From: a virus
Lineage: Duplodnaviria; Caudoviricetes
IMG/VR virus record: IMGVR_UViG_3300028388_001804
Location: 1-52,939 of that record
DNA: 52,939 nucleotides
Reading direction: 5' to 3' (one strand)
Both the position numbers and the translations under genes were made by a program. Shown one piece after another: positions 1 to 36,336 of this stretch; the stretch's first letter is position 1; each line of letters begins with the position of its first letter. A model generated the notes under the pieces. The model did no database searches, was not told where the DNA came from, and saw only the letters and a program-made list of their open reading frames with translations.

Positions 1-3000
1 CCTTGCCCATATATAGCACCAAATTTATCTTTAGCTATTTTAGCTGCTCCAGCTCCGTGTCTTCCTTGTGGATTACTGCCGAATACAAATATAGTATTAG
101 GTTCTGGCTGAATATTTCCTTCGTAATAGTTTTGCGTAGTCCGCTCATTTAATAGCTCAGCTAATGCGCGGGCTTGGGAAAAAGGTGTAGATGCAAACAT
201 ATCTGTTAGTATTTTACCTTTAGATTTATCGCGCAACTCTTGCTCTAAAGTGGGGTTTTCATCTAAGTATATTCTCCATAAATCTTTATATAATAGCCAC
301 TGCTTTTCTGCTGAATACAGTCTACCTTTTTTACCCTTACCTAATTTATATTTATTATCTGAAAAAGCTGTACTTCCTTTAGGTTTAGGTTTAGCTTTAC
401 CATAACCTTTAATATCTAATTGGTAAATATCTTCAATAATTCTACCATCCTTTAACTGTGCAAACATGGCACTAAAACGCTTATCTCCTTTACTAGATAC
501 TTCATAGCTATTAGCAGCTTTTCTAGCCCAAGTATAAGTTGTTATAGTGGTTGCAGTATTTCTAATATTAGAAGGATTTAACTTAACGTCTAATATTGAA
601 AGTACATCTTCATTTAAAAAGTCTTCATTTAAAGATTTAGCTGTAATAATTCTAATATCATCTAATAAAGTTACAGGTTTTTTTAATTTAAATACTTTTT
701 TCAAGAAATCAACTATATCATCCCATAAACTTTTCTTTTTGCTGTAAACAGACTCTTTGTTCTTAGCCCAAGATTTAAGCTGTCCTATTGTCAAGAAATT
801 AGAAGGTATCTCTGTACCTGAAATATTAAAAATATCCAATTGGTCTAACCAATGAGTTCCATTATTTAAATCTATTTTCTGACCTGTTAAAGCATAAAGT
901 AATAAAGATATTTTCTTATCTCCTTGCTGAATGAATGGAGTATTACTTATATCTTCATCAGTTAAATTGTTAATTACATTTAAAATCCACTTTTTAGTTG
1001 CTTTTTTATCTGTAGTATCAAGTTTATGTCTAGTTGCTGCGTGCCAAAGTTCATGTAATAGGGCTTCATCAGCAGTTTGATAAGACATATCTTTTATCTT
1101 ATTAGCATATAAAAATACTTTATCCGAAGATTTAGAGTATTCAGCAACTGAGCCTTTTAATATAGGTTCATTTTTAGAAATAACAACATTTTTAAAAGAT
1201 TTCAATAGAGTTTTAATATCATCGTAATATGCAGAACTTCTGAATAGTTCGTCTAAATTATTCTCATCCACTAAGACTTCACCTTGTTCGTTATAATCTA
1301 AAGTAACAAACTTATCGTAATACTTTTTATTTTCTTTTAAATTTAGCTCTCTATAGTCTGTTTTAGCCTCTTGTTGAGTACTTTTTACTCTTCCGTATAA
1401 GAACCTTTCAATTTCTTTTAAAGACTCCATAGAAGCCAATTCTGAAGCAGACTTTTCATTAGAATATACTAGCTGTCGTTTCAAATTTAATAAAATATTA
1501 TCAACTTCTTTTTTAGTCAGAGGTTTATACTTATCGTATTTAGCATTATCAATAGCTTTAATATTAGCTAAAGCCTGGTCTTTATATTTACTATTAAATA
1601 TTTTGTCAAGTGTAGGGTAGCCGTAAAATTGCTGATACAAATCTTTTCTAAGATCTTCTAGTTGTTCGTCTAATTCATCCTGTTGATTTTTATATTCGTT
1701 TAAAAAAATTGCAGCATCTGATTTAGATTTAAAAGCACTATCAAGACCTTTTATAGACTTATACGCTTCTGTTTTTAAATCTTTCAGAGAATCAACAAGT
1801 TTTAAATCTAAATCAAATAATTCAAGTTTTTTAGATAAATTAGATTTAAATTCATCTAATAAAGTTTGATAAAAAGGAGACTTTTGTAGTTTAGAATCAA
1901 TTCTATTTTTTATAAAGCTTTGAACTTCTTCTTTTGCTAACTGCAGCCTATTATCTTCTTCTAAGTTAGTAGCAGTAAGATATGTTCCAGCTTTGTTATC
2001 AACATGTACATATTTAGCGTCAATATCAAAATCAGCTCCTGAAAGTTCTATAATCTCTAAAGGTAAAATTAAATTATTACCTTGAAAATATGGTAAAGTA
2101 TCTACATACCTAATGTTTACCATAAATCCCTTTCCTTGTGTAGGAATACGCACTCCGTGATCTGTTCTACCTATTTCAGCAGCTTTATCGGAAGCAATAC
2201 CTTCTGAATACCATGTATTAGTTTTATCATCCCAAATTCTATGTCTAAGTCTAGTTTTAATTTCTTTTACCCTAGAATATGTTGAAGACTGGTAAAAATC
2301 AGATTGATACATCTCTTCTTTAAATGTATTATTTTCTAGATACTCGTCCAGTTTTTCAATCGGCGTGTCAATAAGCTCAGACAGTTCTAGTAAAGTTAAA
2401 AGTTGATCTGTTAAAATATCATAATCTTGAGTTTGATTAAAATCTTCACCTAAAGAATTAATTTTATCTGTTAGACTTTTAATTTTTTCCGCTCGTTTAG
2501 AATAATGTAGTTCTTCAAACGAAGGATCTGTAGCTTTAAGTGTGTCTACTTGGCGATAAAATGTAATTCCATCTTCTGAGAAATAAAGCGATTTTTCTTT
2601 ATTAAAAAGAGTGTTATATTTATCCCTACTAATACCATCAATACTAACTAACCTACGAACTGTATATCCGTAGGAAGAAACTAATGTATATTTTCTTCCA
2701 TCCACTTTCTGAGAAAATAAATTTTTACTTACAAATGCTTGATATAAACTTTCTATTTTAGCAGAAGCTGCTGTAAAATTCCAGTTATACTCAGGTATTT
2801 TAGTAAGATCATCAATTTGTTGGTAAGATCCTAAGTATTCTAATAAAAGTACATCTGAATCTACATCTGATAGATTAGCTTTAACATATTCTACAAATTC
2901 AGTAAAATTTATTTCATCTGACGATTTACCGTCTTCCATTCTAAACAAAGATTTTTCTTTATCTTCTAGAGAAAGATCTACCCGTTTACCTAATAAATCT

Positions 3001-6000
3001 TTAAAAAACTTAGCTAATATAGGAGCTTTTACAGTTTGAGATCCAAAATGTAAATCTTGATTAGGATCTACTTCAGTCCAGATTAATCCCATAGATTGAG
3101 TACCGTCAGTTATCTTTGTTTTAAACCCATCAGTATTTGTATGCTCTCTTAAATTAGAGTTTGAAAGAATATTTATAACATTATCAGTAATATTATCTAA
3201 ATCTTTTTGTGGATTTAATTTAGCAGTTTTTAACGAAGATGTAGTAATAATAAAGTCTACTTCTTTTTCTTGTAATGTATTGTAAGCTTTGTGTAATTCT
3301 TCTCTTCCCGGTAATGCTTCATATAATTTAGATGGATTGTTTTTATATAAATTTTTTAATCCTTTAACATATTTTATAGCCTCTGCTTTAGATTTCTTTG
3401 TATCTTTTATATGTTTAATTATTTCTGGTTTCAATCTTGAAGTACCACTTCTTTGTAAAATATTAACTGAAGTTTTCATTAAAGTAAGCATACTCTTTTC
3501 TACAAGTTTTTTAGAGTGTCCCCATACATTTAATGACTCTAAAAGAGAATAGTCAGGTGTAAATACATTATCTAAACCTAACTCTATTAATTCTAACTCA
3601 TCTAATATTTTTTTAGATTTTTTACCAGTAGCTTTAATATAAACATTTTTAAACCATTCTAAGGTTGTGTAAGTTTGACCGTCAGAAGAGTCTATTCCCT
3701 CAACTGAATCTAATCCATTTCTTTCTCTCTCATAATCTTCTAAAGAAGTTTTTGGCATATCTAAAGCAATATAAGTTGTTTTACCTACTCCCATGTTACT
3801 ACCCGAAGATATTTGATTACCATTACGTTTAGTTGCATCCGTATAATTTCTATGGTTTAAATTTACATACCCATAAAACAAATTAGACAGTAACATACCA
3901 TTTATTGTATCATTATAAAAGTAATCTGCAAGTCTACTATAAACTATATTTTTATCTTTATCTGCATAATTAGCAGGAAGTAGTAAATTTTTACCTTTTT
4001 CCATGTTAATTAAATTCTCAGATTGAAGTTGATTTAAAAATTTATCAAATTGAGACTGCATGTAATAATTTAAACTTTGAGACTGTGCTTTACCCAGATC
4101 TTTTTTATTTAAAGACAAGGCATTTTGTACAAACTCTTCTGATCTAGAAATATTTTTAAATCTAAATAACTTAACCATTCTGCTTTGTTTCGGATTTGTA
4201 TTGTATTTAGCAGTGTTTTTTAATATAGTTTCTAATTTACTTATATCTTTAATTCTACTCTTGCCGTTCTCGTCTTTCTCAAGTTCTATACTATCAAGTA
4301 GTTGATTAAAACTAATTGTATCTGTTTCATTTAAATAATATTTACCAGTATGATACTCTTGTACTATATCCTGTTTACCTTCTTTTATTTCTTTTATCTG
4401 GTCGTAAGCTGAACTTATATATGATAACTCGTATTGAAGCATAGCTTTTAACCTAGAGCCTCCTTCTTTTGTTAAATTTATTTTATTGTCTTTTATATTA
4501 AAATACTCTTTTTTAGGCGTAGTAACAAAATAGTTAGTTCTCTTTTCTGAGAAAATAAATACCTGAGTAGGATTTATACTTAAATTAGACAAAGGATTAA
4601 ATTCAGCAAGTTTATTTATTAACCTTGACCTTAAAGATTGTTGATGGTATACTTGTCCATCACCTCTACCAGATTCATTATTTTCTGTCATTCCTGCAAA
4701 ATATCTAGCTTGCATAGAAACAAGTGCTTTAGGATCTCTTATAAGAGGATTCATCATCAAGGATCTAGCTCTAATCTCAGCTTCTAAATTAGAAATACTC
4801 TTACCGTAAGAAGAAAATCCAAAGTGAATTTTATCCATAAGAACGTTCATATCAGTACCGTTATTGATGATATAGTCAATAGCCAGAGCAAATTTACCTT
4901 TACCGTTTGTACTTTGAATATAGTGCATTATTTCTTCTGTAAAATAAGATTGTTGAGTTTTGTTGTAAATGACATTATCATTAGCATCTTTAAAAGCTAA
5001 AGAAGTGTTTTCATCAGAAAATTTAAAATTATTATTTATAATTTTTCTTAATGTAGAAGTTGCTCCTATATAATTAGAAGTTTCATCTGGATAGAATGCA
5101 AATTTATCATATTTTGAATTAGATTCTAATATGCTAAAAGTATGCTGTACCCCTTTTTTACTATCTTTCTTATAATACACTCTTTGAATCGGAGGAATAT
5201 GTGTTCCATAATTATTTAAAATCTCTTTAAAATAAGTTCTTTCCTCTAAAGATACATTTTCATTATCATAATGTTCGTAGGCAATAGAATACATGATATA
5301 CGGGTGCGATATACTCATACCCAACATATTCAAATTCTGTGAAATTACAATTATTAAATCTACTGTAGACGTTGGTAATATTGCCGTACCATCTAATGTA
5401 GAAGTTAAATTATCTAGTCCTTTTTGCGTTAACTTAGGATTTTTATAATGCTTTAATAAAGTATAGGTAACTTTTATAAGCTGTGTTATTTGTTTAGATG
5501 TTAAATTTTGAGACATAAAATCAGATTTCCATTTATCTAAAACTTGCGCTTCATCTGATTGTATTGTAGCTCTAAGACTTATTGTTTCATTAGTATTGCT
5601 ATTTATTAGTACTTCTGTAGCTTCTATATGAGTATGATTTACAGCTCTATAAAATGAAGATAAAATTGGGATGTCCATTAAAATATCAACAGATTTTACA
5701 TCTTTATTATAAAGTAAATCTAATGTATCTTGTTTAGCAGTTTCTTTAGGAAAATTAAAATAGTCTTGTACGATATTTTCTATTTTATTTAAAAAAGCAT
5801 GTACGTTTTCATTTACATCTCTCATAGAATTTAACTTAGAAAAATATTCTTGTGGAAATGTATCCGCTAAGTTGTTAATAAGAAATGAGTAAAATTCATT
5901 CTCATTAATAAAATTAACAAGTCCTGTAGATTTTAATTTTTCAGAAGATAAATTTTCTAATCCTAGAATATTACTAAATACTGGGGTAGATCCTATAAAT

Positions 6001-9000
6001 AATCTCAATATCTGAGACATAGATTTAATAGGAGATACTTCTAAATTAGATTGAGTATATCTAGAAAAGTTATCTGATTCGCTGTGTACTTCTGAATCTG
6101 GAAGATCTGCTATACCACTATCATAATAAGCTAAAGATCTTTTTATTTCTTTAAATAAAGCACTATTTTCTGTTTCAAAATAATTAGCTAAGGCATTAGT
6201 AGCATTAAGTAAACTTTGATATGTAGCTGTAGAAGCATTAGATTCTATTAAAGCTAAAGCTAAGTTTTCATTTAAATCTAAATCATATATTTCTTCAAGT
6301 TCTTCAACAACAGCATCTATATCAGATTTATAGATTTTATCTTTTTGAAGGAGTTTAAAAGTAATTTGCTTTATAAGTGCGTTACTTAAATAAGATGGTA
6401 AATATTTTGTTATGTCTTTACCTGTTATAGGGTCTTCTTCTGTATACTCTAATAAAGCTTGAGATATATCCACAGGAGTTCCGCCTAAATCTTCTACATA
6501 TTCTCGTATAATTGTTAATACTTCAGAAGTATAGTTAGATTTCTCCCCTCGTTCATAAGCTTCAAGTAAACTGTTTAATCTATTTATTTCTACTTTAGCT
6601 CTTTTTTGCAAGTTTGCTTTAGTAGGATTTTCTTTTAATCTAGTTAATAATGATTTTAACTTAGTAATTTTTACTTCATTAGATAATATTTTAGTTATAT
6701 CATTTTCAGTAACAGTTTGACTTGGAACTTTAGATATTAAATTTTCAGAAGAATCTTTAATTGCATCTTGTAGTTCTTTGTTAATTGTATCGTATAGTTT
6801 AGTACCTTTTAAATTATTAGCTAAAAGATCTTTGTAAATAGATTCTACATTTTCATTAAATGTTTCTTTTGAAATCTTATCTTTATATTTTAATAAATTT
6901 GAGTACTTTTTATTTAAAGCATCTAATATAGACGTATCTTCTTTAGACTTTAACTTCTCTTTAGGTTTACTTTTAGGTTTACTTTTAAGTTTACTTTTAG
7001 ACTCAGATTCTACGGGTTTTTCTTCTTGCAAATCTTCTGAAGTTAGATCGTAAATTGGTTGGAATAATCTAGACGGTATATAAGTCATTCTAGTATTATT
7101 ATAATCAATATTTAATCCTTCTTGATTAAATCCTTGAACTCCTGTAACTTGTAAGTTCATAGAAGCTAAAGATGTTTTTCTTTTCTTTGTGTATAAATTA
7201 GCTACAATATTAGCAGCATTCTTTATATCTTCTGCAGTTACTGGCGACCCTGTTGTTTTATTTATAAATTGTTTTTGCTTACGATGCCAAACTATATCTG
7301 TGTACTTAGTATTAGACAAAGACATAGTTATCGAATCTTCTACAGTATTAGACCTAGTGTCTTCTAAAGATAAAGAAATACTTAACTTAGGTATAATATC
7401 TCCATATCCTTCAGGATTATCTTGAAAATGCTTGATATTAGGATTTTCAGTTTTACCGTACTTTTCTTTAACTCGTTCCTCAGCTTCTCTAGTATATTTT
7501 GGTTGAATTAAAACTCTAGAAATAAGATTCATACCTTCTGGTATATATCTTTCATTTACAGAGATCCACATACTAGAGACTGTATCTGTGCCTAATACAA
7601 TATCTTTTAAATACCCTTGAGCTGTAGTAGTACCTGATTGTAAGAATGGATTTGATTTTAAAAATAAATTTCTTAAAACACTCACGCCTTCTAATAAAAC
7701 TTCAGTTAGAACAGACTGTCTAATTGGCAAAGATTTTAAAGAATAGTATTTACCACTAGGTAACAATGCTAAAGAGTTTTGATTATTTATTTTAGAATTA
7801 GGTGCATGTGTATCTATTAATACAGCTAAATCGTCTTTAAATTCTTCTGATATAGCTGATGCAGGTTGCCATTGGTCTGAATTTAATTCTTTTACCCATA
7901 TACTGTCTAATCTTAAATTAGATTCTTTTTTATTTAGCCTAGTTCTCTGGACTACAACAATATACTTTTTACCATTATAAGTATGTGCATCTTCTTCTGT
8001 TAGCTGGTCTACTAACTTAGGTAAATCTTCAACATTTTCGTAACTATTTTTACCATTATTGTAGGTCATTACATTAGAATACTTACCAAACACTTCACTA
8101 TTAAATTTAATTCTTCCTCTTAAATCTATAGGTTTACCAAGTGTCAGCTCTTTTAAAAGTTTATTATAAACTTCTTGAGCTTTTATACCAGCAGCTAACG
8201 ATTCTCTTCCTTTTGGAGTTAATTCTTGAGTTAAATCATTCCAGTATAAAGGATTTATATCTTTTATTAGCTTATGAGGCATTGTTTTAAAATCTACTTT
8301 ATTACCGTTTAAAAGAAATTTATAGGGAGATGTTAATCTTCCAATATATTTACCTTTTAAAAACACCTGCACTCTATACTTTTTACCGTCTATAATATGG
8401 TAAGGAACTGCTGTTAACTCAGAAGTGTATATTTTTGATTTAGCTTTACCAGAAAAAGGAACTAATTTTAAATTTATATTACCTTTTCTAATTTCCTCAG
8501 CATTTTCATTGATAAATTTTATTTCTTCATCTGTAAGATCATGTCTTAAAATAATCTTATCGTCAGAAACAATCTTACCTTTAATATTTAAATCCTCAAA
8601 TACTTCTTCGTTTTCAATTTCTTTAATTTCATCTTTTAAAAGCTCTTTTTCTTCTTCTACAATTTCTTCTATAATTTCCTCAGCTTCATTTTTATCTATA
8701 ATATCTTCGGGTATGCTATTTATAGCTTCCTCTTTTATTTCGTCTAATTTTTCTACAGTTTCTTGTAATTCTTCTTTACTTGAAAAACTTTCTACAGTAT
8801 CTTCAAAAATTTCTTCTTCTATATCATCATACTCTGTACTCCCTTCAACTTCTTCAGCAGCACTTTCTTCCTCTACTATAGGTAATTCTGACTCAACATT
8901 CTCTGAAGGATCAGGTGAAATTTCTTCTTCAGTGCTAACATTTTCTTCTGGTGTTAATTCAATCGGCTCAGAATTTTCTAACAAACTCTCTGGATTATTG

Positions 9001-10055
9001 TCAACACTCTCTTCTAATTCTATTTCTTCTGTTTCTACATTATCAGAAGAGGTACTTTCACTTTCTTCAGGTTCAGATTTTTCTTGTTTGTAATTCTCAG
9101 GATATACAGATCTATTATACCTCTCTAAAATATCATTTAAACTTTCAATTAAAAAGTTTGTAATCATCTGCTGAGACTTAGTCTTAGGATTATAATCATC
9201 TCTTAGATCTAAAATATCTTTATATAAATCAGTAAGATCTTTTTCATCAGATTTAGTTAATTTCTTTTTATTAATATAATAGTCAATCCTATCACTAAGC
9301 TCTTCAATTTTCTCTGTTATTGGATTTGGTGTTGCTTTATTTACAGTCTCTACAACTTTTTCTGCAGCTTTTTCAACAGCTTCAGCACTTTCAGGTTCTA
9401 AACTTTCTACACTATCTACAGTAGATTTTAACTTATTTCCTGCAACTTCTCTTTTAATAACCTCATCAAATAGTCTGCCCCATCGAGATTTTATAGCTCT
9501 TTCTTGATTTTGTCTAACTGTTAAATCTTCAGCTATATTATCCGAAGCTAAAAATGTAGATTCAGATTGAGGTATAACATTTTTAGACGACTTAAAAAGA
9601 TTATTTTTTAATATCGCATCTCTTACTTTAAGTAGTTTTTTATCTCCTTTTAAAGTTGCTACTGCATTATAATCATCAACAAGTCTTCTTTTTAAAGCTG
9701 TTAATTTATTATAATCTTGGTATGCTTCTACTGCAGCCTTATATTTTATAGAATCTCTGTTCTTCAATTTTTCTAAATACTCTACATTGCTAATGTGGTC
9801 AGTTAACCCTTTAAAAACTTGTTTTGTATCTTTTAAAGCTTTGTCAAGTTCGTATACATTTTTATCTAATTTTTTACCTTTAACAGTTTTACGTTTAAGT
9901 GTATTTAAAAATATATTAACAACATCTTCTTCAGTTATATCTCTATCCTTTATATTCTTTTTAAGGCTGTTCATGTGAGTTATCACGTCTTGTCTTTCTT
10001 TTTTGTTTAAAACTCCGTTGAAAAGATAACCAACTAAGTCTGTTTTATCGTTTAA
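1..10055 (-). CDS. Giant virion-packaged RNA polymerase polyprotein (>3300 aa in this frame, 3' end outside window)
   Basis: Segments translated by hand all fall in one minus frame (codons starting at positions = 2 mod 3): DSSDGQTY (~3680), GVRIPTQGKG (~2140), SGADFDIDAKY (DFDID 2019-2033), HELWH (1041-1055), IFVFGSNPQGRHGAGAA (~45-95). The track reports no minus-strand ORF here, consistent with one stop-free frame running off the edge. DFDID and RIPTQ match crAss-like vRNAPs such as phi14:2 gp66. Possible independent starts are ATG 10112, GTG 9986 or ATG 9974. Confidence 0.9.
6961..7000. repeat. 3 x 12-bp tandem repeat (TTAGGTTTACTT) encoding a KSKP-type linker
   Basis: Units at 6961, 6973 and 6985 (one mismatch in the last), inside the vRNAP frame. 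Confidence 0.85.
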
Positions 10056-11824
10056 AAAGAATTTCTCTCTTCTTCTGTAATTGAATTTCCATATGACAGT
10101 GCATTTTTCCATTCTTCAACTGAGGAATTATTAGCTGCGGAATCAACTGCTTCGAGAAGATGGTGTATTGTTTTATCTTTATGAGCTTTATATATTTGTC
10201 TATATATAAGCTCATGCTCTGAATTTTTAGCTGAAAACATATCGTTATTTTTTAACGCTGTTTCCAAATCACTATAAGACTGCAGTACTCCTGTTAAAGT
10301 TTTAAAATGTTTTTGAATATACGAAGATGTAGCCTCAGTTGCTGCTTTTACATTATCATACTCTGTTATTTTATCGGAAGCCTCTTTCCAAGCATTAGTT
10401 AAGCCAGATTCCCATCCAAATCCAAATTTTCTTTGTCCTGTTTTTTTATCTACTTTAGACATTGTGGGAGATCCTGCTAAACCTATTAAACCTCCTAAAG
10501 TAACTTCTTTCCAGAAATCTTTTGTACCAAAGTTTTTACCATAAGCTGATGCAACATCTAATGCTATGTCCATTGCAGTACCTTGAGCATCACTAGAATA
10601 AGAGTTTAAAGTATATTTTAAAATACCGTCAGTAATAGCAGCTTGTCCTGCCTCTTCAATTAAACCTTCCGATACAAACGGTTTTAAAAGAGCATAACTA
10701 CCTCGTACAACTTTATTTCTTAAAGCATCTGTTACAAGTTTATTAGCTGGAGATAAAACTTTAGATTTAGCTCCTACCATATTACCAGCAAGTTTATGTA
10801 TACCTAAGTTTTTAGCTGCTGGGTCTATTATAGCATCTTTAAGTCCTATATTAAATACTCGTCCGAATGTTAGAAAGTTTGTAAATCCTACTAAAGCAGA
10901 GTTAAGAGCAAATACTGAATTACCTCCTTGAACAGCATAATCTTCTATATTAAGTTTTTCTTCTTCTGTTAGCTCTCTTCCAAGATCTCTCTCAGCTTTT
11001 TCAGTCATTGCTTTAATAGCTTCTTTTTTAAATTGGTTAGCTTCAACCCCAGCTTCGTAAAAAGCACCTGTTATTATCTGGCGAGATAACCCTAATGTCT
11101 TGCTATTTCTAGCTGCAGATGCTATTCCTTTTAAAGAAGATACTGCTCCTTTTGCTTTAGAAGCTGTTGTAAATATAGAAGGTAATCTAGACATAATAGA
11201 TGCTGTAGCAGCAGCTTGAGCTGGAGCAGCAGTTAGACCTGAAGCTGTTGTTGCCGCAGTTAAAGCTGTCTCTGTTAAAACTGCTCCAACAACGAAAGAT
11301 ATTGCACCTAAAAAATCGTCTGCCCAGAATTTAAATGTTCCTAGTTGTTGTCCTATATTCTTATCGTGGTAATCAGCAGGACCGTTTATCAGCCAGTTTT
11401 GATCTATATATTCAGTTTGGGCATTTATCCAGTTGTTATATGTGTTATCCCAAATATGTGACTTATCACCGCGAGCTAATGCCCCGACAGAAGATCCCAG
11501 CATACCTATTCCCCCTGCTACATTTAAACCAGTTTTACCTGCAAATTTATATGCTGCCACATTAATTTTACCATCTCCGAAAGGATTTAATGTAAATAAA
11601 GGTTGAGACCTAGATTTTATATCGTACAACTTAGCAAAATTATCAACATCATTAGATGTCAATATAGGGGTTTTAACATTATGTTTACCTTTTTTTCTAA
11701 AAAGAGATGGATCTATGTCTATATCTTTGTTATATTTTATTGTATCAGTACCATAACCTCTTGCTTGTTTAGCTGCTGAGTTATTCATTACTCTTTCAAA
11801 AGGATCGTTTGTTGGCTGTGCCAT
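10052..11824 (-). CDS. N-terminal membrane-active segment of the ejected cargo/vRNAP protein (probably fused to the downstream frame)
   Basis: 590 aa with several Gly/Ala-rich hydrophobic helices (GAISFVVGAVLTETAL, VFALNSALVGF, TLGGLIGLAG). Ends abruptly at NSF* where the -1 frame is open. Confidence 0.75.
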   Translation of the reverse strand: MAQPTNDPFERVMNNSAAKQARGYGTDTIKYNKDIDIDPSLFRKKGKHNVKTPILTSNDVDNFAKLYDIKSRSQPLFTLNPFGDGKINVAAYKFAGKTGLNVAGGIGMLGSSVGALARGDKSHIWDNTYNNWINAQTEYIDQNWLINGPADYHDKNIGQQLGTFKFWADDFLGAISFVVGAVLTETALTAATTASGLTAAPAQAAATASIMSRLPSIFTTASKAKGAVSSLKGIASAARNSKTLGLSRQIITGAFYEAGVEANQFKKEAIKAMTEKAERDLGRELTEEEKLNIEDYAVQGGNSVFALNSALVGFTNFLTFGRVFNIGLKDAIIDPAAKNLGIHKLAGNMVGAKSKVLSPANKLVTDALRNKVVRGSYALLKPFVSEGLIEEAGQAAITDGILKYTLNSYSSDAQGTAMDIALDVASAYGKNFGTKDFWKEVTLGGLIGLAGSPTMSKVDKKTGQRKFGFGWESGLTNAWKEASDKITEYDNVKAATEATSSYIQKHFKTLTGVLQSYSDLETALKNNDMFSAKNSEHELIYRQIYKAHKDKTIHHLLEAVDSAANNSSVEEWKNALSYGNSITEEERNSF

Positions 11825-14506: not shown

Positions 14507-15904
14507 TTATTTACCTTTATATGTATAAATTCCTTTTTTATACGAATCTAAAATTTTCTGTACACCTTTTTCATCATTATTATCTATATAATACATCAGA
14601 TTTTTCATAAAATCTTCTGAAATACCAAATCTATCAGACATAGTGCTAAGAGTCATCAATCTTTCTGCTGTTCCTAATTTAGCTAATTCTTTTTGATTTT
14701 TCATTATCTTCTCAGCTTTTATCTTGCTATCTATATTTTTACCTACTAAATTCCACATATTCTGAGCTGCCATTCTACGCATATTCCTAGTATTCGCATC
14801 ATTCTGAGCTTGCTCTACATCCTTCTGATGAGTATATTCTCTTTGTTGCGCACCTAATGTAGATCGCAATCTTGCTTCTTGAGATCTGTATTGATTGTTT
14901 GCTTGTTGAGTTTGAAGACCTATATTTTGCATTTGTTGAGATAAATTAGCTCCTATACCTACATTGTAAGCATTTCTTACTTGAGAACTACGAGTATTTA
15001 TATTCATTCTTTGAGAAGTAGCCTGTCTATTAGCTTCATTTACTAAAGCTGCATCATCAATTCTATTCTCTCGCATTAAATCTAAAGCTCTATAGTATTC
15101 TGGGTTATTTCTTTGTCTAACACTCTCAGAACCTCTAAGTCCGTCTGATATAGCTGAAGAGATCATAGGAGTCATAGATGCTATAAGTCCTATTTTATCT
15201 ATGTTTAAATTAGATCCAAAACTTTTAAATTTAGACATTCTATCTAATTTCTTATAGTTAATGTCATCCATGCGAGTTTGAGGTACTGGAACAGTGGAAT
15301 AAGAAGGGTCAGTAGCAGGTTTCTGTTGCTCTATAATTTTATTTGATTCAACAATATCTTTATCGTAATAATCATCTATTATAGAACTGGTAGTATTACC
15401 TAAAGATATTTCTTGTCCTGAGTACTGAGTATTATCTCCTGCAAGAGGATCTCCGTAATAAGGAGTGTCTTGATTTTGGGTTGTAATGTCAAATGAAGAA
15501 TCAGTATTATAATTTCTTAAACTGTAATCTTGAGCTAAGAACTTCATAGGTTTACTCTTTAAGGGTTGCCAAGGATCAGTATCATAATCTGATCGTATAC
15601 CTCCCAAAGCGTATTTCTTATTTTCTTCCAGCGGCTTTTGTTTCTTCTTTCTTTCATTTTTTCTTTTTAAATCTTCAAGTTCATTTTTCATAGAAGTCAT
15701 ACCCAAGGCATTATTAAACCATCGTTTAGAATATTTATTCTCTATTTTCTTAGAAACGTCAGCAGTACCTAATTTTTTAGAAAAAATATATCCATTGTGT
15801 TCAGTTTCTTCTCCTTCCACTTCTATATTACCAGATCTTATTCCACCTTGACTATGTTTAGGTCCTGTATATTTTATTAAATTATTTGTTTTTATTTTTT
15901 TCAT
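14507..15904 (-). CDS. Cargo protein (crAss C1-like)
   Basis: N-terminal GPKHSQGGI...IEVEGEE...YIFS motif, Q/N-rich coiled C-terminal half, directly after the muzzle gene. Confidence 0.65.
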   Translation of the reverse strand: MKKIKTNNLIKYTGPKHSQGGIRSGNIEVEGEETEHNGYIFSKKLGTADVSKKIENKYSKRWFNNALGMTSMKNELEDLKRKNERKKKQKPLEENKKYALGGIRSDYDTDPWQPLKSKPMKFLAQDYSLRNYNTDSSFDITTQNQDTPYYGDPLAGDNTQYSGQEISLGNTTSSIIDDYYDKDIVESNKIIEQQKPATDPSYSTVPVPQTRMDDINYKKLDRMSKFKSFGSNLNIDKIGLIASMTPMISSAISDGLRGSESVRQRNNPEYYRALDLMRENRIDDAALVNEANRQATSQRMNINTRSSQVRNAYNVGIGANLSQQMQNIGLQTQQANNQYRSQEARLRSTLGAQQREYTHQKDVEQAQNDANTRNMRRMAAQNMWNLVGKNIDSKIKAEKIMKNQKELAKLGTAERLMTLSTMSDRFGISEDFMKNLMYYIDNNDEKGVQKILDSYKKGIYTYKGK

Positions 15905-18900
15905 TATAATATATTTGGTACTGTTACCGTCGATATGAAATTAGTTTTAATTTTATTACTGCCATTATAATACAATCTAATCCCGATATAATTATCTATA
16001 ATTCTTTTTAATTGCCATTCTTGTCGTGTAAGGTCTAAATTAGTCGGAACTTTGTCTATAAAATAATTAGATTGAATATTATTCCAATCAGATGTAAAAA
16101 TATTAGAGTTTAAACCTATATCTCTGATAGCAGCTACTTTATGAAGATTGTTTGACTTTATTACTGATTTATTAGTAGGATCCCAACCTAAATTAAATAC
16201 TGTATCAGAAGTTTCTAACTGCAAGTTAAGTAGTCCTGTACTTTGATTACTTGAGTAAACAACTAGGTTATCGTAAGTTTCGTTTAATACAGCCTCATTT
16301 TCATCTACTACTTCTGAATAGTATTGAATAGAATCTATTATAGAAGTTCTATTAAACTGAAGTGTATAATCTAGTATGCTAGATTCTTGAATACCGTAAT
16401 AATTAGATCTAACAGTCTCATTATCGTGAGAATATAAAGTAGATCCTATAGAAGAAAACACTGTAGTAGAATTACTAAATAAATAGTCAGGAATGTAAGA
16501 GTGAAAAGAAGTCCAGCTTTTATTCATTAAAGAATAAGATAGTGTAAATGATTGATTTTCGTAGCGATCTACATTTGATGTGGGTTCACTAGAATCTTGC
16601 CCTTCAATAAGTTTAAAAGACTTTACTGAATATAAAATTCTATCATACTTGTTATCATAAGCAATGAGTACTGAGTGATCTTTTCCGAATAAAGGAGATT
16701 TACTCTGTAAGTAACTGTTTAAACCTTTATAATTTAAATTATTTAAATTGGAAGAATGAAGGTAAATTCTACTAGAATTACTATCAACCCAAGTTATACC
16801 AGAAGGTATCTTTAAAACACTTCCGTTTAAACATCCATAAGCTCCATATTCTGCATTAGAGAGCTTTTCTGGTGTAAGTGATAGAAATGCTCCAGACTCT
16901 ATTATAATGCCGTTAGAACCAGTATTTAGCTGTTGATGATTAGGTCTAGTAATGTATAAATCGTCTGTAGTATGAATATATAATCTATTTTTAGAATAAG
17001 TTAAGTTAGTTATTTCTCCTTTATCCCCGTCAATAATTTTTTCTGCTCCTGGTTTGTACAGAGTATACGCATCTCCAGAAAACACGTTACTAGATAAAGA
17101 GCTGTAGATAATAGTATTTGGGTATTTATTTATACAGTCAGAGCAGAAATTATATGTAAAAGGTAAAGGGTAATACACATTCTCATAATTCTTTTTACTA
17201 TAGTCGTAATTATACCTATATATTTCAGGACATACAGTTCCATTTATAACGTAATTTTGTATATCTTCACTATAAGTAAGCAACTTATCTCTAATATAAC
17301 CTAAAAACTCCAAAGAGTTTACATCATAAATATCTCCACATACAGTTTCAATTTCTCTTAGATTTGTATCTATTTCACTTTCAACTACTAAATCTGTAAG
17401 AACCTCAGCATGGTATCTAATATCTCCATTTCTACAGTATAAATGTCCTGCAGGCCCAGGAAATTTCCATGTATTTGTAGTAAAATTTGTTAAATCTCCT
17501 AAGGCATTATCTTTATACAAAGCTGCTATTTCACGGATAGTAGATACAGTTACTCCTAGAGTAAACCCTACTCCTGCTGCTATTAATGCAGCTTGAGGTC
17601 CTCCAACACCTGCAGATTGAGCTGCTGATTGTACTGAATTAGATAAAGCTTGTACATTAGGTGCTGCGTCAGAAGTTGATATAGTAGCTCCTAAAGCTGA
17701 TGCAGCTCCTACAATACCAGAGCCTAACACTCTAATTGCTTTATCTAGAAAAGCTGTAGTACCTTCACTTTCTAATAAAACATTTGCAATAAAAGGAGGT
17801 GATACCCAAGTTTCTCCTTCAAATATTACTGTATCTCCAGTTTTCATACCGTTATGAGTACGGACATATTCAATAGAATATAAATCATCAAAAACAATTT
17901 TATCATTATCAGCTAAACTCACATAAAACAAGCTACCTTGATCGTCTTCCACCCAAGAAATATCTGAATTAGTATAAATAAATTGAAAAGGATTTAACAT
18001 AGATGTATTTATAACTGTAGTAGCAGTTTCAAATATATTCCTAGAACTTTCGTTATATTCAAAAAATTTAGATTTTAGTATGGTACTAGATTGTGAATCT
18101 ATTCGTTGCGCACCCCTTTTTAAATAAGAAGCAGTAATTATAATGTCGGTATCTTCTCCAAACATAGCAGAACCATTTCCATCGTATTCCATGCAATTCC
18201 AGTTACCTTTACCATATTTTACATTTCCTATTCCAGATTCACAATTAGAATCTATATTATATTCAGTAGTTCTAAACTCTAATATTTTATTAAAATGAGT
18301 AGATTGTATTTCTTTTCTTTTATATTGTAATTCTGGAGATGTGAACCACAGGTGTTTAGTAGAAGCAGTTGGTTCTGAAGGTTGTAAATATGTCATACCT
18401 CTAAATACCATACCAGTAGAAGAAGTAATATTATTTAATGTTCCTGCAAATCCTTTAGAATAAATAGTTTTATTACTATAATTTCTTTTAGCTTTTACAA
18501 TATAATGTCCTATTACATCGTCAGGGTACTGTATATTAGAAAATTCGTATCCAATAATTCCTTTTTGGTCTAATCCTCCTAAGGTAATAACTCCTCTATC
18601 AGGAGTTACAAAATGTTTAATATTCTGATTTGAAAGAGTTCCTCCTCCTTGTATATCCCAATAAGTATCCGCACAATTTGGATTTGTATATGTAGATTGA
18701 GTGATGTGAGGATCGCAAGTTCCAGTTCTATGATAGGCAGGAACAGAAGGGAGCAAAGAATACGTTGTTTTACAAGGTATGTTAAATACAGGGGACTCTT
18801 GTCCGTTAGTATGGATATAAACTATACCGAAAGCTTCTACTTCTCCTCCCATAAAACTTCTCTCTCTTGCTCTTGAATCTACTATTTTAGACACCCATTG

Positions 18901-19890
18901 TGTGTCAATAGCATTAGCATATTGTTGATATAAATTATATGGTCTATATTTTTCAGTTAAATTAGCTCTAAGTAACCTACCATCTACTTGTTCCATTACC
19001 TTAGATGTCTCATAAACAATATTTTGTTGTAATAATTCATCTAATGTAACTCTAACATCTTCCGATGTTAAATTTGTAAAATGAAATGAATATATAGAGT
19101 TTTGAATAGGTTGATTATTTTTTATACAATAAAATTCAGTTGCTGTGCCTGTACCACTGGTTGCAATTGCAACATAAATATTAAAATAAGCAAACTTAGT
19201 ATCTATATTTTCTATTAACAGTTCAATAGAAGAATCTTGGTTTTTAATTACAAAAGTAGGTAATGATAAATAACTTCTATAAACTACATTAAATTCATTA
19301 TCTAAATAAGAAATACTAAATTGGTACGCTCCTGGCTTTAGAGATCCAGCATTTAATACAGTAGCTGTAAAGTTTGGAATGATAAAATCTGGATTTAGTT
19401 CGATTAAATTACAATCAAAATTTCCAGTAGAGTCGTTGTACAGACCATCATCATAGGCAGATAGATTAATTCTTCTATCAGGATTTAGACTATCTCTGAA
19501 ATAAATAACTTCATCACATCCATTGACAATTCTATATTCCCCTGTGATTCTAAATTTTAAATCAGTAGAAAAATTTAAACATTGATCGGAAATTAACTGT
19601 GTGTAGGAATTATTAAACCATTTACCTATACTATGAGAATCAACTCCATTAGAAGTAAATAGAATAGTAGTAGAATTATCTACTGATATATGTCCTATGA
19701 TAACTTCATTGTTAGAAAAAGTAAATCGTTCTGTAGTTCCATGTTCGTTTACAATAGTTCCTATATCTCCTTTACTAGAATTATTTAAAAGATTTAAACC
19801 AAAGTTATACGAGTTTTTTACAGGAGAATTTTCTGATTTATCAGAAGACATTCCTATAATCGGTACTGCAATATTATTTTGTTGTATCAT
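15904..19890 (-). CDS. Tail stabilization / muzzle protein (crAss Tstab, P22 gp10-like)
   Basis: 1328 aa, beta-rich. Motifs IYFRDSLNPDRRINL, LKPGAYQFSISY, GRLLRANL, SWTSFHSYIPD and position match crAss-like Tstab. Confidence 0.8.
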   Translation of the reverse strand: MIQQNNIAVPIIGMSSDKSENSPVKNSYNFGLNLLNNSSKGDIGTIVNEHGTTERFTFSNNEVIIGHISVDNSTTILFTSNGVDSHSIGKWFNNSYTQLISDQCLNFSTDLKFRITGEYRIVNGCDEVIYFRDSLNPDRRINLSAYDDGLYNDSTGNFDCNLIELNPDFIIPNFTATVLNAGSLKPGAYQFSISYLDNEFNVVYRSYLSLPTFVIKNQDSSIELLIENIDTKFAYFNIYVAIATSGTGTATEFYCIKNNQPIQNSIYSFHFTNLTSEDVRVTLDELLQQNIVYETSKVMEQVDGRLLRANLTEKYRPYNLYQQYANAIDTQWVSKIVDSRARERSFMGGEVEAFGIVYIHTNGQESPVFNIPCKTTYSLLPSVPAYHRTGTCDPHITQSTYTNPNCADTYWDIQGGGTLSNQNIKHFVTPDRGVITLGGLDQKGIIGYEFSNIQYPDDVIGHYIVKAKRNYSNKTIYSKGFAGTLNNITSSTGMVFRGMTYLQPSEPTASTKHLWFTSPELQYKRKEIQSTHFNKILEFRTTEYNIDSNCESGIGNVKYGKGNWNCMEYDGNGSAMFGEDTDIIITASYLKRGAQRIDSQSSTILKSKFFEYNESSRNIFETATTVINTSMLNPFQFIYTNSDISWVEDDQGSLFYVSLADNDKIVFDDLYSIEYVRTHNGMKTGDTVIFEGETWVSPPFIANVLLESEGTTAFLDKAIRVLGSGIVGAASALGATISTSDAAPNVQALSNSVQSAAQSAGVGGPQAALIAAGVGFTLGVTVSTIREIAALYKDNALGDLTNFTTNTWKFPGPAGHLYCRNGDIRYHAEVLTDLVVESEIDTNLREIETVCGDIYDVNSLEFLGYIRDKLLTYSEDIQNYVINGTVCPEIYRYNYDYSKKNYENVYYPLPFTYNFCSDCINKYPNTIIYSSLSSNVFSGDAYTLYKPGAEKIIDGDKGEITNLTYSKNRLYIHTTDDLYITRPNHQQLNTGSNGIIIESGAFLSLTPEKLSNAEYGAYGCLNGSVLKIPSGITWVDSNSSRIYLHSSNLNNLNYKGLNSYLQSKSPLFGKDHSVLIAYDNKYDRILYSVKSFKLIEGQDSSEPTSNVDRYENQSFTLSYSLMNKSWTSFHSYIPDYLFSNSTTVFSSIGSTLYSHDNETVRSNYYGIQESSILDYTLQFNRTSIIDSIQYYSEVVDENEAVLNETYDNLVVYSSNQSTGLLNLQLETSDTVFNLGWDPTNKSVIKSNNLHKVAAIRDIGLNSNIFTSDWNNIQSNYFIDKVPTNLDLTRQEWQLKRIIDNYIGIRLYYNGSNKIKTNFISTVTVPNIL

Positions 19891-31460: not shown

Positions 31461-32822
31461 TTATGCAAATGGAGCAGCTTGAGTCGCTACTCCGTTATAC
31501 TCAATATTATTTGTATTACTAGACGCTAACCACGGAGCTAACGCTGTGTTTAGATTAGAAACAGTAGTTGAAGCTGTCGTTGTATAGGTAATTGGTGTAG
31601 CTACATCTGTAACTGCTACAGTACAAGGTAATAAGATTATACAAGTTTTATTATGTAAATCTTTACCTGACATGTGGTCTACCCAATCAAAATAATCCAC
31701 TCTCGTTTGAGTGTACATTACATCTTCTTTAATATAAACTTTAGATAAAGGATAGTATTCATTTCTAGGTACAACTTGCATATCACCTACATTTAAAGCT
31801 GCACGCATATTGTAATCTATAAGTAAATTAGATCCTAAACCTTTTGTTTCTTTAGGAAACACTATTTCTTGAGATTTAACTGAATCAATTAAAAACTGAT
31901 CTGATAAATTAACATTCAATCGCGTTTTGACATTTAAAATATCATCATAAGCTATAGCTTTAGGTGAATCTAAACCTATCAATATAAAAGCATCGCAGTT
32001 ATCAGCAGCTCCTGCAGTAGTTGGATTCACATGAACCAATTCAGTAGTTGTTGCTATTGAACTTGAGTTTGCAATTAACTCTTGTAATGTTGCAATGTCT
32101 TCATTTTGAAAAGTATAGTTATATGTAGTACCATCTAAAGTTAAAAATGGAAGACTATCTCCAGTAGATATTGTACCTAAGTCTACGCCACCAGCAGCAC
32201 CACCAGCTAATTTCAAACCAAGAACAACAAAATTCTCATTTCCTTTTGTAAAGATTGAATGAGCATTTACCTTTGCAACTAAGTTTTGAACCATGTGGTC
32301 TAATGGACTTGTAGTAGATAAGCTCGTATAATCTAAAGTTGTATATGAATAATACTCAATATTTCTATTGTATCCAAAATGTCTTTCATTCTTTGATGAA
32401 ATTTGATCTATATAAAGACCGTATAAAGTTCCATCTTCTACACTAGCAGATGGTACAACCAACTGTACTGATTTAGTTCCTAAACTTGGTTTATAAGTTG
32501 AAATACTTCTAATATTAGAGGTATTTAATTCTTGAGATTGAACATGTGTTTTATGTCCATATTCAAAACCATTGTCAGCTAAAGAGATGTTGCTAGATGC
32601 AGGAGTACCTTGAACAAATTTAAATCTGCTCACCCCAGCTGCATTCATATCTCCAGTAATAGTTTGTTTAGTAGTTAAATCTACTATACCAAGCTGGTCA
32701 TTTGAAATGTTCATACTTGTACCAGTACCGAACAGTTTATTTCCTGTCGTTGCTAAAGCTAAGTTTGAATTAGATACTAGAAACGTAGGAGTATTGAGTT
32801 TATTAGCTCTTTTAAAATTCAT
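31461..32822 (-). CDS. Auxiliary capsid / structural protein
   Basis: 453 aa, T/A-rich, last gene of the capsid block before a terminator; crAss synteny. Confidence 0.6.
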   Translation of the reverse strand: MNFKRANKLNTPTFLVSNSNLALATTGNKLFGTGTSMNISNDQLGIVDLTTKQTITGDMNAAGVSRFKFVQGTPASSNISLADNGFEYGHKTHVQSQELNTSNIRSISTYKPSLGTKSVQLVVPSASVEDGTLYGLYIDQISSKNERHFGYNRNIEYYSYTTLDYTSLSTTSPLDHMVQNLVAKVNAHSIFTKGNENFVVLGLKLAGGAAGGVDLGTISTGDSLPFLTLDGTTYNYTFQNEDIATLQELIANSSSIATTTELVHVNPTTAGAADNCDAFILIGLDSPKAIAYDDILNVKTRLNVNLSDQFLIDSVKSQEIVFPKETKGLGSNLLIDYNMRAALNVGDMQVVPRNEYYPLSKVYIKEDVMYTQTRVDYFDWVDHMSGKDLHNKTCIILLPCTVAVTDVATPITYTTTASTTVSNLNTALAPWLASSNTNNIEYNGVATQAAPFA

Positions 32823-34749: not shown

Positions 34750-36336
34750 TTAATCAAATTGAATACGACCGATTCTAGATACATCAAAAATACCTAAAGA
34801 TCCGTCTAAAGTGCGGTAGAATGATGCGTCTTTATTTAAAGAATAAGCATTACTTCCGTCTTTAATTGCTCCTGTATATGGATCATATACGTTAGAAACT
34901 GTGAAGTATTCTTCTACGCCATGTTCTCTAACCATAACCATATTATCTTTGCGACTTGCATTTGCAGGAGCTTGTTTAGTATGTCCAAAATCATAAATGT
35001 CATAACAATATGATTCTTTAGTATTTGATGTTCCTGGAGCCAATGTTCTATATAACTGAGGATCATCTTTTGTAGGATCGTATACTAATTCTACTGTAAT
35101 ACCATTAGGGGCGAGCCACTTTGTAAACTGAGATCCGTACTCTAATTCGTGTTTATGGAATCCACTTCCTCCATCTTTACGTTCACGAATAAAATGCGTG
35201 TCCATTACAGTATGAATCTTAGCTTCTTCACCTAAGAGTCTTTGCATATAAGCAATACCTCCTGTACCTGATACAAGTTTAATATGTCTTTCACTAAATG
35301 GAGTTCTAGTAATAAACTTGTTCATAAGATACTGATATATCTCATCCAAAGTTACACTACCGTTATGGCGTAATACAGACGAGTCTTTGACCATCTCTTC
35401 CCATCCCGGAGCTGTTCTTTGTTTTTTATTAGTATCTACATCATAAGTACTTTCATTCCTACCAAACTGCATTAAATTCTCTCTGTCCATTTGAACTTTC
35501 TCTTCAAGACGAGCTTCTAAAGCAGTTATAAATGTGTTAGCTTTAATTTCTTTACCAGTACCATTACGGTATGTTGTCTGCCAAACGTGTCCTATGCCGA
35601 TAGATTTATCCGAATCATAGTTTTCTGGAAGAGATCTTCTTTCTTGTCTACATCCAATTTCAGTTCTAATCATTTTATCAGTTACAGTTGCTTTTCTAGC
35701 TACAACTCCAATATGAGATTGAAGCTTATGCACATCGCTGAACTGTTGACCTCCAAACTTTTTGTTCGATTCATCAGGTACTGCTGTAGCTAAGTCAATA
35801 GCTTTTCTACCCGGTTGCAGGTATTCTGCAGGAATCCAATCGTTAGGATTAGATGATTGAATAACACCTCTGTATTTATATACATTTTCAGACAATTTAA
35901 CTGGATCTCCTATAATTCTAATGCCCGGTAAATTGTCTGCTTCAGTTTTAATAATTACAGGTTCGTGTAACCAACCTTTGTCAAGAGTAAATTCAAACTC
36001 TTCCCCACCTTTTCCTACTTGGTCAGATGCTCCTACAAGTAGATCACAAAAAGTAAATTCTACTCTAGGTGAAGCAACTAATTTCCAAGAGTAATGAGAA
36101 ATACCCCCTGGAAGCCAATAAACTCTGTTTTCTGCAGCAGTAAGATAAGTGAATTTTTTATTCATAAGATGTCCCCCTAAATCTGAAGAGAACATATTTG
36201 TAGAAACCACGCCAAAATCATAAGCTTGGTATTTTCTAAACATTCTATTGTAAGTAAGTGCATCAAAATAAGTACCACCGAAAGATGTTCTTTCTACTGT
36301 GGTAACTGCACTTCTACGAGATAATGGTGATGTCAT
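34750..36336 (-). CDS. Major capsid protein
   Basis: 528 aa after portal and scaffold; size, synteny and motifs (RTAPGWEEMV, LVSGTGG, NGITVELVYDP) are crAss-like. Confidence 0.85.
   Translation of the reverse strand: MTSPLSRRSAVTTVERTSFGGTYFDALTYNRMFRKYQAYDFGVVSTNMFSSDLGGHLMNKKFTYLTAAENRVYWLPGGISHYSWKLVASPRVEFTFCDLLVGASDQVGKGGEEFEFTLDKGWLHEPVIIKTEADNLPGIRIIGDPVKLSENVYKYRGVIQSSNPNDWIPAEYLQPGRKAIDLATAVPDESNKKFGGQQFSDVHKLQSHIGVVARKATVTDKMIRTEIGCRQERRSLPENYDSDKSIGIGHVWQTTYRNGTGKEIKANTFITALEARLEEKVQMDRENLMQFGRNESTYDVDTNKKQRTAPGWEEMVKDSSVLRHNGSVTLDEIYQYLMNKFITRTPFSERHIKLVSGTGGIAYMQRLLGEEAKIHTVMDTHFIRERKDGGSGFHKHELEYGSQFTKWLAPNGITVELVYDPTKDDPQLYRTLAPGTSNTKESYCYDIYDFGHTKQAPANASRKDNMVMVREHGVEEYFTVSNVYDPYTGAIKDGSNAYSLNKDASFYRTLDGSLGIFDVSRIGRIQFD

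Follow-up and report, generated by a model that had tools for sequence, protein, structure and literature searches.

NADAR-like and macro-like domains at the truncated end of a giant phage protein of probable crAss type: a possible pre-made eraser of base-linked ADP-ribose

Introduction

The phage NADAR protein AdfN reverses the guanine-linked ADP-ribose (ADPr) produced by DarT1 (PMC11825919) and the macrodomain AdfM of phage phiKZ reverses the thymine-linked ADPr produced by DarT2 (PMC13309987), so that both are in print as anti-DarT enzymes. Macro and NADAR domains packaged in virions are likewise in print, as are tandem arrangements of the two, reported from several viruses, and fusions of DUF4326 to NADAR or Macro domains (Iyer et al., 2022; PMC9503650). 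Polyvalent proteins are described as large virion proteins that deliver several enzymes together with the DNA and often carry zincin-like peptidases that may separate these enzymes (PMC5512222). Here we analyse a 52,939-nucleotide stretch of DNA from a virus of the class Caudoviricetes (henceforth the window), which is the whole of IMG/VR record IMGVR_UViG_3300028388_001804 and in which a giant open reading frame (ORF) of probable crAss type ends, at the edge of the record, in a probable NADAR-like domain (domain 1) followed by the beginning of a macro-like domain (domain 2).

DarTG and other defences based on ADP-ribosylation take effect in the first minutes of an infection, and an eraser of ADPr marks that arrived together with the phage DNA would therefore be an effective counter-measure. 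We consider how far the two domains, the protein that carries them and their relatives in other phages fit such a role, and which other roles they might have.

Results

Two conserved domains at the end of a giant frame

The giant ORF occupies positions 3..10112 of the window on the minus strand, encodes 3370 residues and forms the downstream end of a minus-strand block of structural genes. Its 3' end is open and runs off the contig: the record is a linear partial fragment (52.9 kb, estimated to be 48% complete) and the frame meets no stop codon before the left end of the window, so that the gene must be regarded as truncated by the contig end. A preliminary description of this DNA had pointed to two peptides at the end of a 'vRNAP frame', one resembling NADAR and the other a macro fold. 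Both peptides are indeed present, in a single frame and with correct coordinates, and they make up its final 180 residues. The first block (~145-540 in that description) corresponds to residues 3193-3324 (window 141..536, minus strand), a complete small domain of ~130 residues that matches the family phrog_9995 (E = 6e-36); this is our domain 1. The second block (<1-125) corresponds to residues 3327-3370 (window 3..134, minus strand), but it is a stub cut by the contig end, comprising the first 44 residues, with the loop SNPQGRHGAGAA, of a macro-fold domain of the A1S_2505 / N4 gp14 family; this is our domain 2. Given the matches to phrog_9995, phrog_2072 and NF049995, both blocks are real conserved domains and not chance motifs.

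Domain 1 covers positions 2-122 of the 124-position profile of phrog_9995, a family whose function has not been characterised. In the protein database, a search confined to proteins of comparable length gave 125 homologues at E <= 1e-3, mostly stand-alone proteins of ~125 residues, and five of the 120 listed are fused to DUF4326. Among GenBank phages, 81 records encode the domain (69 Pseudomonas, eight Achromobacter, two Delftia and two Sphingomonas PAU records); the Pseudomonas records belong to phiKZ-like and other jumbo phages, the Achromobacter and Delftia records to N4-like phages. In phiKZ (L008) the domain 1 ORF (4001-4351, ~120 residues) lies among the genes for structural head proteins and has been annotated only in part, as PHIKZ082.1 of 39 residues. 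The small family phrog_9995 carries no annotation and is widespread: members occur in phiKZ-like jumbo phages, in N4-like phages and in giant proteins of the crAss type. Seventeen positions are invariant in an alignment of 66 members (in the numbering of sequence P0003, S18, G21, D22, R24, S26, A27, A30, E39, K47, K71, Y87, W91, L105, D116, Q125, A126 and L129), and E39, Q43 and K47 are invariant or nearly so in these 66 sequences.

Resemblance of domain 1 to NADAR

Sequence searches did not connect domain 1 with NADAR. It had no Pfam or NCBIfam match, and the Pfam NADAR model PF08719 matched neither P0001 nor P0003 at E <= 1, none of the 66 family members at E <= 10, and nothing in the six translated frames of the window at the same limit, in a search that did recover the control genomes. 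Our own YbiA-type NADAR hidden Markov model (HMM) likewise found nothing in the window. The C-terminal 400 residues of the giant protein had no match among PDB sequences at E <= 10, profile searches with the domain 1 and domain 2 families against PDB sequences returned chance-level matches only, and an ESM Atlas look-up of domain 1 gave no usable match. As the family sequence model fails, domain 1 is not filed here as a Pfam NADAR.

The predicted structure tells more. The AlphaFold model of domain 1 has a mean predicted local distance difference test (pLDDT) score of 91.7 and consists of five helices with small beta elements. For comparison, the YbiA-like fold is of the alpha+beta kind, its five core helices having small beta-hairpins on their flanks. 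Of the 33 matches that a Foldseek search of the PDB gave at E <= 10, none reached E <= 0.001; at the top stood the NADAR of Geobacter lovleyi (8bat), with E = 0.2, a probability of 0.89 and template modelling (TM) scores of 0.56 on the query and 0.38 on the target, and all remaining matches had probabilities of 0.06 or less. Against BFVD, ranks 1-4 were taken by the family itself, and ranks 5-50, which are below threshold (E of 0.2 to 5), included eight entries named NADAR or YbiA, three pieces of nidovirus replicases and nine DUF4326 entries.

Profile-to-profile alignments were made with a phage-type NADAR profile of eight domains excised from giant phage proteins and with a YbiA-type alignment built from homologous proteins. 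With the phage-type profile, hhalign gave P = 0.009 over 57 columns at a probability of 4%, and placed tIE..YQ..K of domain 1 on SVE..FQ.K (with one gap), GKGK on 'LGR' and W...Np on W...Np. With the YbiA-type profile the match was not significant (probability 0.3%), and on its single local path FSA..DGR.IE..YQ fell on FSNF..DGK..SEHYFQ in the same register. In YbiA the catalytic Glu/Lys pair is E48/K55. In NADARs of the DarG1 type (E. coli C7) the catalytic residues E88 and K95 lie on one helix, as do the catalytic residues E36 and K43 of T4 AdfN (PMC11543638; PMC11825919). The weak alignments would put Glu39, Gln43 and Lys47 of domain 1 at the position of this catalytic Glu-x3-Gln-x2-Lys helix. 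Taken at the level of its model, domain 1 probably has a NADAR-like fold and belongs to the NADAR superfamily as a divergent member; it may be a compact and very divergent relative of the NADAR hydrolases, or else a look-alike by convergence. The NADAR likeness proposed for the first block can accordingly be kept in moderate form, with the 8bat match, the enrichment among sub-threshold BFVD matches and the hhalign P of ~0.01 with the Glu/Lys helix in register on the one side, and the lack of any Pfam or NCBIfam NADAR match on the other.

Predicted macro fold of domain 2

Short as it is, the domain 2 stub matches phrog_2072 with E = 1e-11 and NCBIfam NF049995 (A1S_2505_Nterm, 'A1S_2505 family phage non-structural protein') with E = 1e-9, where the score of 38.3 bits remains below the cut-off of 45 because only 30 of the 109 profile positions are on the contig. 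A full-length copy was found in a 136-kb IMG/VR contig (L004) within another giant protein, one with a DYDID motif, and scores 110.4 bits against the same cut-off. The stub and the L004 copy are 91% identical over 44 residues and ~85% identical at the DNA level, with an identical run of 23 nucleotides. Between window 3-134 and L004 6001-6132 the similarity begins abruptly at QNYYEGNI, and the two giant proteins are otherwise mostly unrelated; this abrupt start suggests that domain 2 moves as a cassette.

The family is large, with 3774 representatives at E <= 1e-3 in a library clustered at 50%, and tblastn found homologues in 421 GenBank phage records, including gp14 of coliphage N4. Most members are stand-alone proteins of ~142 residues, and conservation is high (~70% identity across many stand-alone copies). 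A few of the GenBank homologues are labelled 'ADP-ribosylglycohydrolase' or 'macro domain Poa1p family', so the macrodomain likeness of N4-gp14-type proteins has already been noticed by some annotators; no paper examining the function of N4 gp14 as a macrodomain turned up in our literature search.

The model of the L004 copy (pLDDT 87.4) has TARG1 as its best Foldseek match (E = 1e-3, probability 1.00, TM 0.54-0.56), followed by the nsP3 macrodomains of chikungunya virus (CHIKV), Venezuelan equine encephalitis virus (VEEV) and Getah virus and by DarG of T. aquaticus (probability 0.97). Overall, the macrodomain matches have probabilities of 0.97-1.00 and TM scores of 0.50-0.56; two structural-genomics proteins of B. 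thetaiotaomicron and designed hydrolases were also among the matches listed. Sequence searches were again silent: none of 43 family members matched Pfam Macro at E <= 10 (there were weak DUF7831 matches only), and a profile search of PDB sequences with the family found no macrodomain. AdfM of phiKZ (gp104), by comparison, matches DarG structures with E of 1e-19 to 1e-25 through N-x2-G-V-M-G-x-G-x-A, FPTK and PPLGxGNGG.

When the domain 2 family was aligned by hhalign with 12 phiKZ-type AdfM macrodomains (P = 0.008, 76 columns), FGSNPEGRHGAGAAK fell on TVNxxGVMGAGvAK and PTKD on PTKD, and the loop SNPEGRHGAGAA was in register. The residues N21, G24, H26, G27 and G29 of this loop, which is present in the window, are invariant across the family, as is T57, and K58 is nearly so. 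The PTK lysine, whose counterpart in DarG we take to be the catalytic K80 by counting along the 5m31 chain and assuming a 10-residue tag, would fall beyond the contig end in the window protein, as would the second glycine loop. On the full-length L004 copy, the assignment of domain 2 as a predicted divergent macrodomain of the DarG/TARG1 type, from a family that has so far gone without a name, is well supported. The macro-like character claimed for the second block was borne out on that copy, through the Foldseek probabilities and through the loop and PTK motifs in register.

A SLOG/YpsA-type Rossmannoid fold was considered for domain 2 because Iyer et al. report SLOG-Macro-NADAR fusions. It was set aside for now, as the listed Foldseek matches had no SLOG entry (no direct comparison with a SLOG profile was made) and the DarG/AdfM motifs are in register. 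In L004 (1-9288) domain 2 is followed by a GNAT acetyltransferase (residues ~2240-2306) and a PIF1/RecD-like superfamily 1 (SF1) helicase (residues ~2436-2622). The segment upstream of domain 2 in the same protein (P0004) was considered as a NADAR and dropped, having no support from Pfam or from our own NADAR HMM.

Fusion and nesting of the two domains

To see which domains accompany domain 2, HMMs for domain 1 and for YbiA-type NADARs were run against 144 of the 150 best domain 2 representatives, six short proteins being left out; 75 of the 144 have at least 1000 residues and 52 at least 2000. Domain 1 is present in 18 of them and canonical NADAR in 13. The two partners are combined with domain 2 in several ways. 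In eight proteins (P0258, P0262, P0263, P0269, P0277, P0280, P0312 and P0315) domain 2 is inserted inside domain 1, within a variable domain 1 loop that was modelled with low confidence; one of these, P0312, is a natural nested fusion of only 271 residues. In P0264 and P0295 the N-terminal half of domain 1 is followed by domain 2 and then by the end of the protein. The reverse insertion is seen in P0276, where a whole domain 1 sits within domain 2, directly after PTKD, and P0359 has the tandem order of the window. In seven proteins (P0318, P0327, P0331, P0342, P0350, P0357 and P0385) no more than 50 residues separate canonical NADAR from domain 2. Domain 1 is a tight partner of the N4 gp14/A1S_2505 macro-like domain: the two are nested in each other reciprocally, and canonical NADAR is found in the same place.

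The pair also occurs unfused. In the N4-like Achromobacter phage Axy04 (L007) domain 1 is gene 005 (1797-2186) and domain 2 is gene 015 (4260-4655), and both genes belong to the left-end block just upstream of the RNAPII genes. A predicted complex of domain 1 with domain 2 scored 0.00; controls were absent, and this is evidence neither way.

The carrier protein

The preliminary description treated the frame as a virion RNA polymerase (vRNAP). At residues 2693-2703 (window 2004..2036, minus strand) it contains ADFDIDAKYVH, and it has a GADFDIDAKYVH stretch at residue 2692. This is a motif of the DFDxD type, which is found in two-barrel RNA polymerases and which the virion-packaged protein of every crAss-like phage is stated to have. 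The body of the protein had no match to a Pfam or PHROG family and no PDB sequence match, and tblastn found nothing at E <= 1e-5 in 50,697 GenBank phage records. With the limit relaxed to E = 5, all 29 matching records (E of 0.04 to 5) were crAss-type phages or unannotated faecal phage contigs, namely gut 'uncultured phage cr...' records, Bacteroides phage crAss002, 'Rudgehvirus', Cellulophaga phages and the faecal contigs, and all 29 weak matches were confined to 90 residues around the DFDID motif. The gene matched is annotated as 'putative RNAP catalytic subunit' in crAss002 and Rudgehvirus. The giant L004 protein shares 31% identity with the window protein over 140 residues around its DYDID motif. 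The polymerase label therefore stands as far as the DFDxD motif and the position in the structural block carry it, although significant homology was found neither by tblastn nor in the PDB; on motif and gene position, the carrier is likely to be a crAss-type polymerase-like virion protein.

The genes for the portal (37306-39792), the major head protein (34750-36336) and a virion structural protein (15904-19890), all on the minus strand, lie upstream of the giant ORF, which follows them in the same direction. All 29 ORFs of at least 150 residues that fit the gene layout are on the minus strand; one additional plus-strand ORF on the list is contained within the giant gene.

The composition of the frame would fit a polyvalent protein: no fewer than three different parts, namely the DFDxD region, domain 1 and domain 2, share the 3370 residues of this one frame in the structural block. 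A further motif of the HExxH type, HELWH, occurs at residues 3020-3024 (window 1041..1055, minus strand) and precedes domain 1 by ~170 residues. A zincin-like peptidase, stated to be the domain most often met in polyvalent proteins (PMC5512222), may be located here; Pfam and PHROG gave no supporting profile match for this region.

Directly upstream of the giant ORF, a 590-residue ORF (window 10052-11824, minus strand) matches positions 117-491 of the 1957-position profile phrog_32390 (E = 1.5e-23) and overlaps the first ATG of the giant ORF by 61 nucleotides. Possibly this ORF belongs to the polymerase block as a further piece, and the start given here for the giant gene is provisional.

The missing C-terminus was sought to the left of the window. 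A scan of viral contigs gave only L004, which has domain 2 in common and a different protein upstream of it, the best representative (P0246, 3570 residues) is unrelated outside domain 2, and a scan of metagenomes found no relative.

Other features of the window

A chaperonin of the Cpn60/GroEL type (window 48287-49843, minus strand; E = 1.7e-47) is followed directly by a PNK3P polynucleotide 3'-phosphatase (49812-50351, minus strand; E = 5.8e-24). The phage accordingly has at least one enzyme for the repair of nucleic-acid ends, which bears on a possible role in RNA repair discussed below. A homing endonuclease of the LAGLIDADG_2 family (41582-42241, minus strand; Pfam E = 1.4e-31) is encoded just upstream, in the direction of transcription, of a 580-residue ORF (39773-41515) that itself precedes the portal gene and had no match in the Pfam search. 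Window 32494-32528 resembles window 550-585 on both strands (84-92% over 25-32 nucleotides, E ~ 1e-4 within the record), which is probably a chance resemblance of AT-rich sequence.

Discussion

A possible dual eraser that enters with the DNA

We suggest that the C-terminal part of the giant crAss-type protein is a two-domain ADPr-processing module on a homologue of the DFDxD-type RNA polymerases. The carrier, encoded at the end of the structural block, would probably be packaged in the virion, so that the module would enter the cell with the phage DNA as part of a virion protein, possibly to be released by the neighbouring HExxH peptidase-like region. The NADAR-like domain would then remove guanine ADPr marks of the DarT1 type and the macro domain thymine ADPr marks of the DarT2 type, before any phage gene is expressed. 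We give this reading, a pre-made dual eraser of base-linked ADPr, a probability of roughly 0.4. It is favoured here on account of the polyvalent-protein architecture, the statements of Iyer et al. and the precedents of AdfN and AdfM. The predicted folds, the motif registers and the recurrent fusion and nesting also speak for it, as do, with regard to timing, the gene positions in Axy04 (left-end block), phiKZ (head genes) and the window (structural block), and at the level of the predicted folds an involvement with ADPr is supported.

Several observations weigh against a dual eraser. HMMER searches linked the two domains neither to the Pfam models for NADAR or Macro nor to a PDB sequence, and the link of domain 1 to NADAR consists of a Foldseek E of 0.2, hhalign probabilities of 2-4% and P values of ~0.01, each obtained by comparing a single pair. 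Domain 1 has one residue more between its Glu and Lys than NADARs do (E-x7-K versus E-x6-K), and the C-terminal acidic residue of NADARs has no aligned counterpart; to name D116 as that counterpart is a guess. Domain 1 and canonical NADAR occur together in none of the surveyed proteins against 1.6 expected, a difference that is not significant (P = 0.16). The catalytic lysine of domain 2 is not visible in the window because only 44 residues exist there. The polymerase identity of the carrier is at the level of a motif, the tblastn and PDB sequence searches being without significant match, and its packaging and ejection would follow crAss-like and N4-like precedents, from which we infer them. 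We know of no DarT-type system in the host. [quoted passage not shown]

Other roles for the same domains

This last point leads to what is, among the other roles, the one that fares best, if still a somewhat unlikely one: the same two folds might act on soluble ADPr-derived immune signals or toxic metabolites and not on modified DNA. Cyclic ADPR isomers, ADPr-1''-phosphate and similar molecules of the TIR, SIR2 and ART defences are candidates, and signalling would be quenched at entry, each of the two domains breaking its own bond in a shared molecule. Iyer et al. prefer such substrates on genomic grounds and regard the fusions as a division of labour on different bonds (PMC9503650). Reciprocal nesting would fit two active sites acting on one small substrate, and the very high conservation of domain 2 (~70% identity among stand-alone copies) would fit a universal small ligand. 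Yet the closest motif-level relatives of domain 2 are macrodomains of the DarG/AdfM type, which act on DNA, and the phage NADARs tested so far all act on guanine-ADPr DNA, according to PMC11825919.

The reciprocal insertions, of the macro domain into the NADAR-like domain and of the NADAR-like domain after the PTKD loop of the macro domain, suggested another possibility that keeps base-linked ADPr as the substrate. Phrog_9995 and the N4-gp14-type macrodomain could form one obligate bipartite enzyme with adjoining active sites, able to strip more than one kind of base-linked ADPr, though we hold this to be unlikely. Its targets would, on this equally speculative proposal, be the incoming phage genome or the first transcripts. 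The same doubtful scheme would have the enzyme pre-made on the virion polymerase in crAss-type phages, produced from the first transcripts in N4-like phages and perhaps packed into the head in phiKZ-like phages.

Domain 2 might, alternatively, be the only ADPr enzyme of the pair, domain 1 being a small, unrelated helical accessory (such as a partner that binds nucleic acid or substrate for the macrodomain) whose resemblance to NADAR is fortuitous. We regard this as rather improbable. All profile tests of domain 1 against NADAR are non-significant by usual standards, with a Foldseek E of 0.2; the domain has ~30-40 residues fewer than NADARs and no counterpart of the glycine-rich segment at their C-terminus; and tight nesting with domain 2 would be expected of a dedicated accessory domain as well. 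Set against this, no PDB structure other than NADAR is a credible neighbour and NADARs are over-represented among the weak BFVD matches, the top hhalign paths obtained with two separate NADAR profiles coincide on the catalytic helix, and the 17 invariant residues, among them Glu, Lys and Asp, would be unusual for a mere binding module. Domain 1 is also found alone in 81 phage records.

A role in RNA, in which the module would remove ADPr or NAD-derived groups from nascent early transcripts or clear the ADPr by-products of RNA repair, is the least probable of all: it could appeal to the fusion with an RNA-polymerase-like protein, to the links reported between Macro and NADAR domains and KptA-type RNA repair (PMC9503650; PMC7824862) and to the PNK3P gene of the same phage, but that gene is separated from the module by 50 kb, a scan of 21 ORFs (not all ORFs) found neither KptA nor a ligase, and the two domains mostly either stand alone or belong to proteins in which no polymerase motif can be recognised, the strict motif being present in two of the 144 domain 2 proteins.

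What is new, and what it would mean

What appears to be new here is the recognition of phrog_9995 as a compact NADAR-like domain, its reciprocal nesting with a macro-like domain, and the presence of the pair on a crAss-type polymerase protein. Literature searches on NADAR in crAss-like phages and on N4 gp14 as a macrodomain gave no account of these features; the supplements of PMC9503650 and PMC5512222 may already classify these families. The natural 271-residue fusion P0312 would make both families directly testable. Should the activities of a dual eraser be confirmed, dozens of 'hypothetical' genes of early or head blocks, such as N4 gp14 and the phiKZ 082.1 region, would gain a function.

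Comparison with known systems

Compared with NADARs such as DarG1 (8bat), E. coli YbiA and T4 AdfN (gp30.3), domain 1 has NADAR as the neighbour of its predicted fold and, in the weak alignments, a Glu...Gln...Lys helix in the same register, which in domain 1, too, is preceded by an FS(A/N) motif, and it takes the same place as canonical NADARs beside the A1S_2505 macro-like domain in giant phage proteins. It differs from them in length (~125 residues against ~150-160) and, from the YbiA-type members, in lacking the glycine-rich C-terminal segment D-x-(Y)WG...G-x-G-x-N. Domain 2, as judged by its L004 copy, has in common with the macrodomains of the DarG2/TARG1 type, including phiKZ AdfM, the predicted macro fold, the N-x2-G-x-[MH]-G-x-G-x-A loop and PTK(D), whereas its second glycine loop reads NGYTGxE where DarG and AdfM have PPLGxGNGG, and a DarT-binding domain is absent. 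Unlike the stand-alone members of the A1S_2505 / N4 gp14 family (~142 residues), it forms here the C-terminal part of a protein of more than 3370 residues.

The carrier resembles the crAss-like virion RNA polymerase, gp66 of Cellulophaga phage phi14:2, in its DFDxD motif, its very large size and its being encoded with structural genes, whereas it has no significant match among GenBank phages or in the PDB and reaches E of 0.04-5 at motif level only. Like the polyvalent and virion-packaged NAD/ADPr proteins (PMC5512222; PMC9503650), it is a giant protein of several domains, encoded in the structural module, with an HExxH motif and putative enzymes added on. The published virion-packaged cases are carried by an N4-like RNA polymerase or a MuF protein, whereas the carrier here is a probable DFDxD polymerase protein of the crAss type, and the NADAR-like partner belongs to a separate compact family that is reciprocally nested with the macro-like domain.

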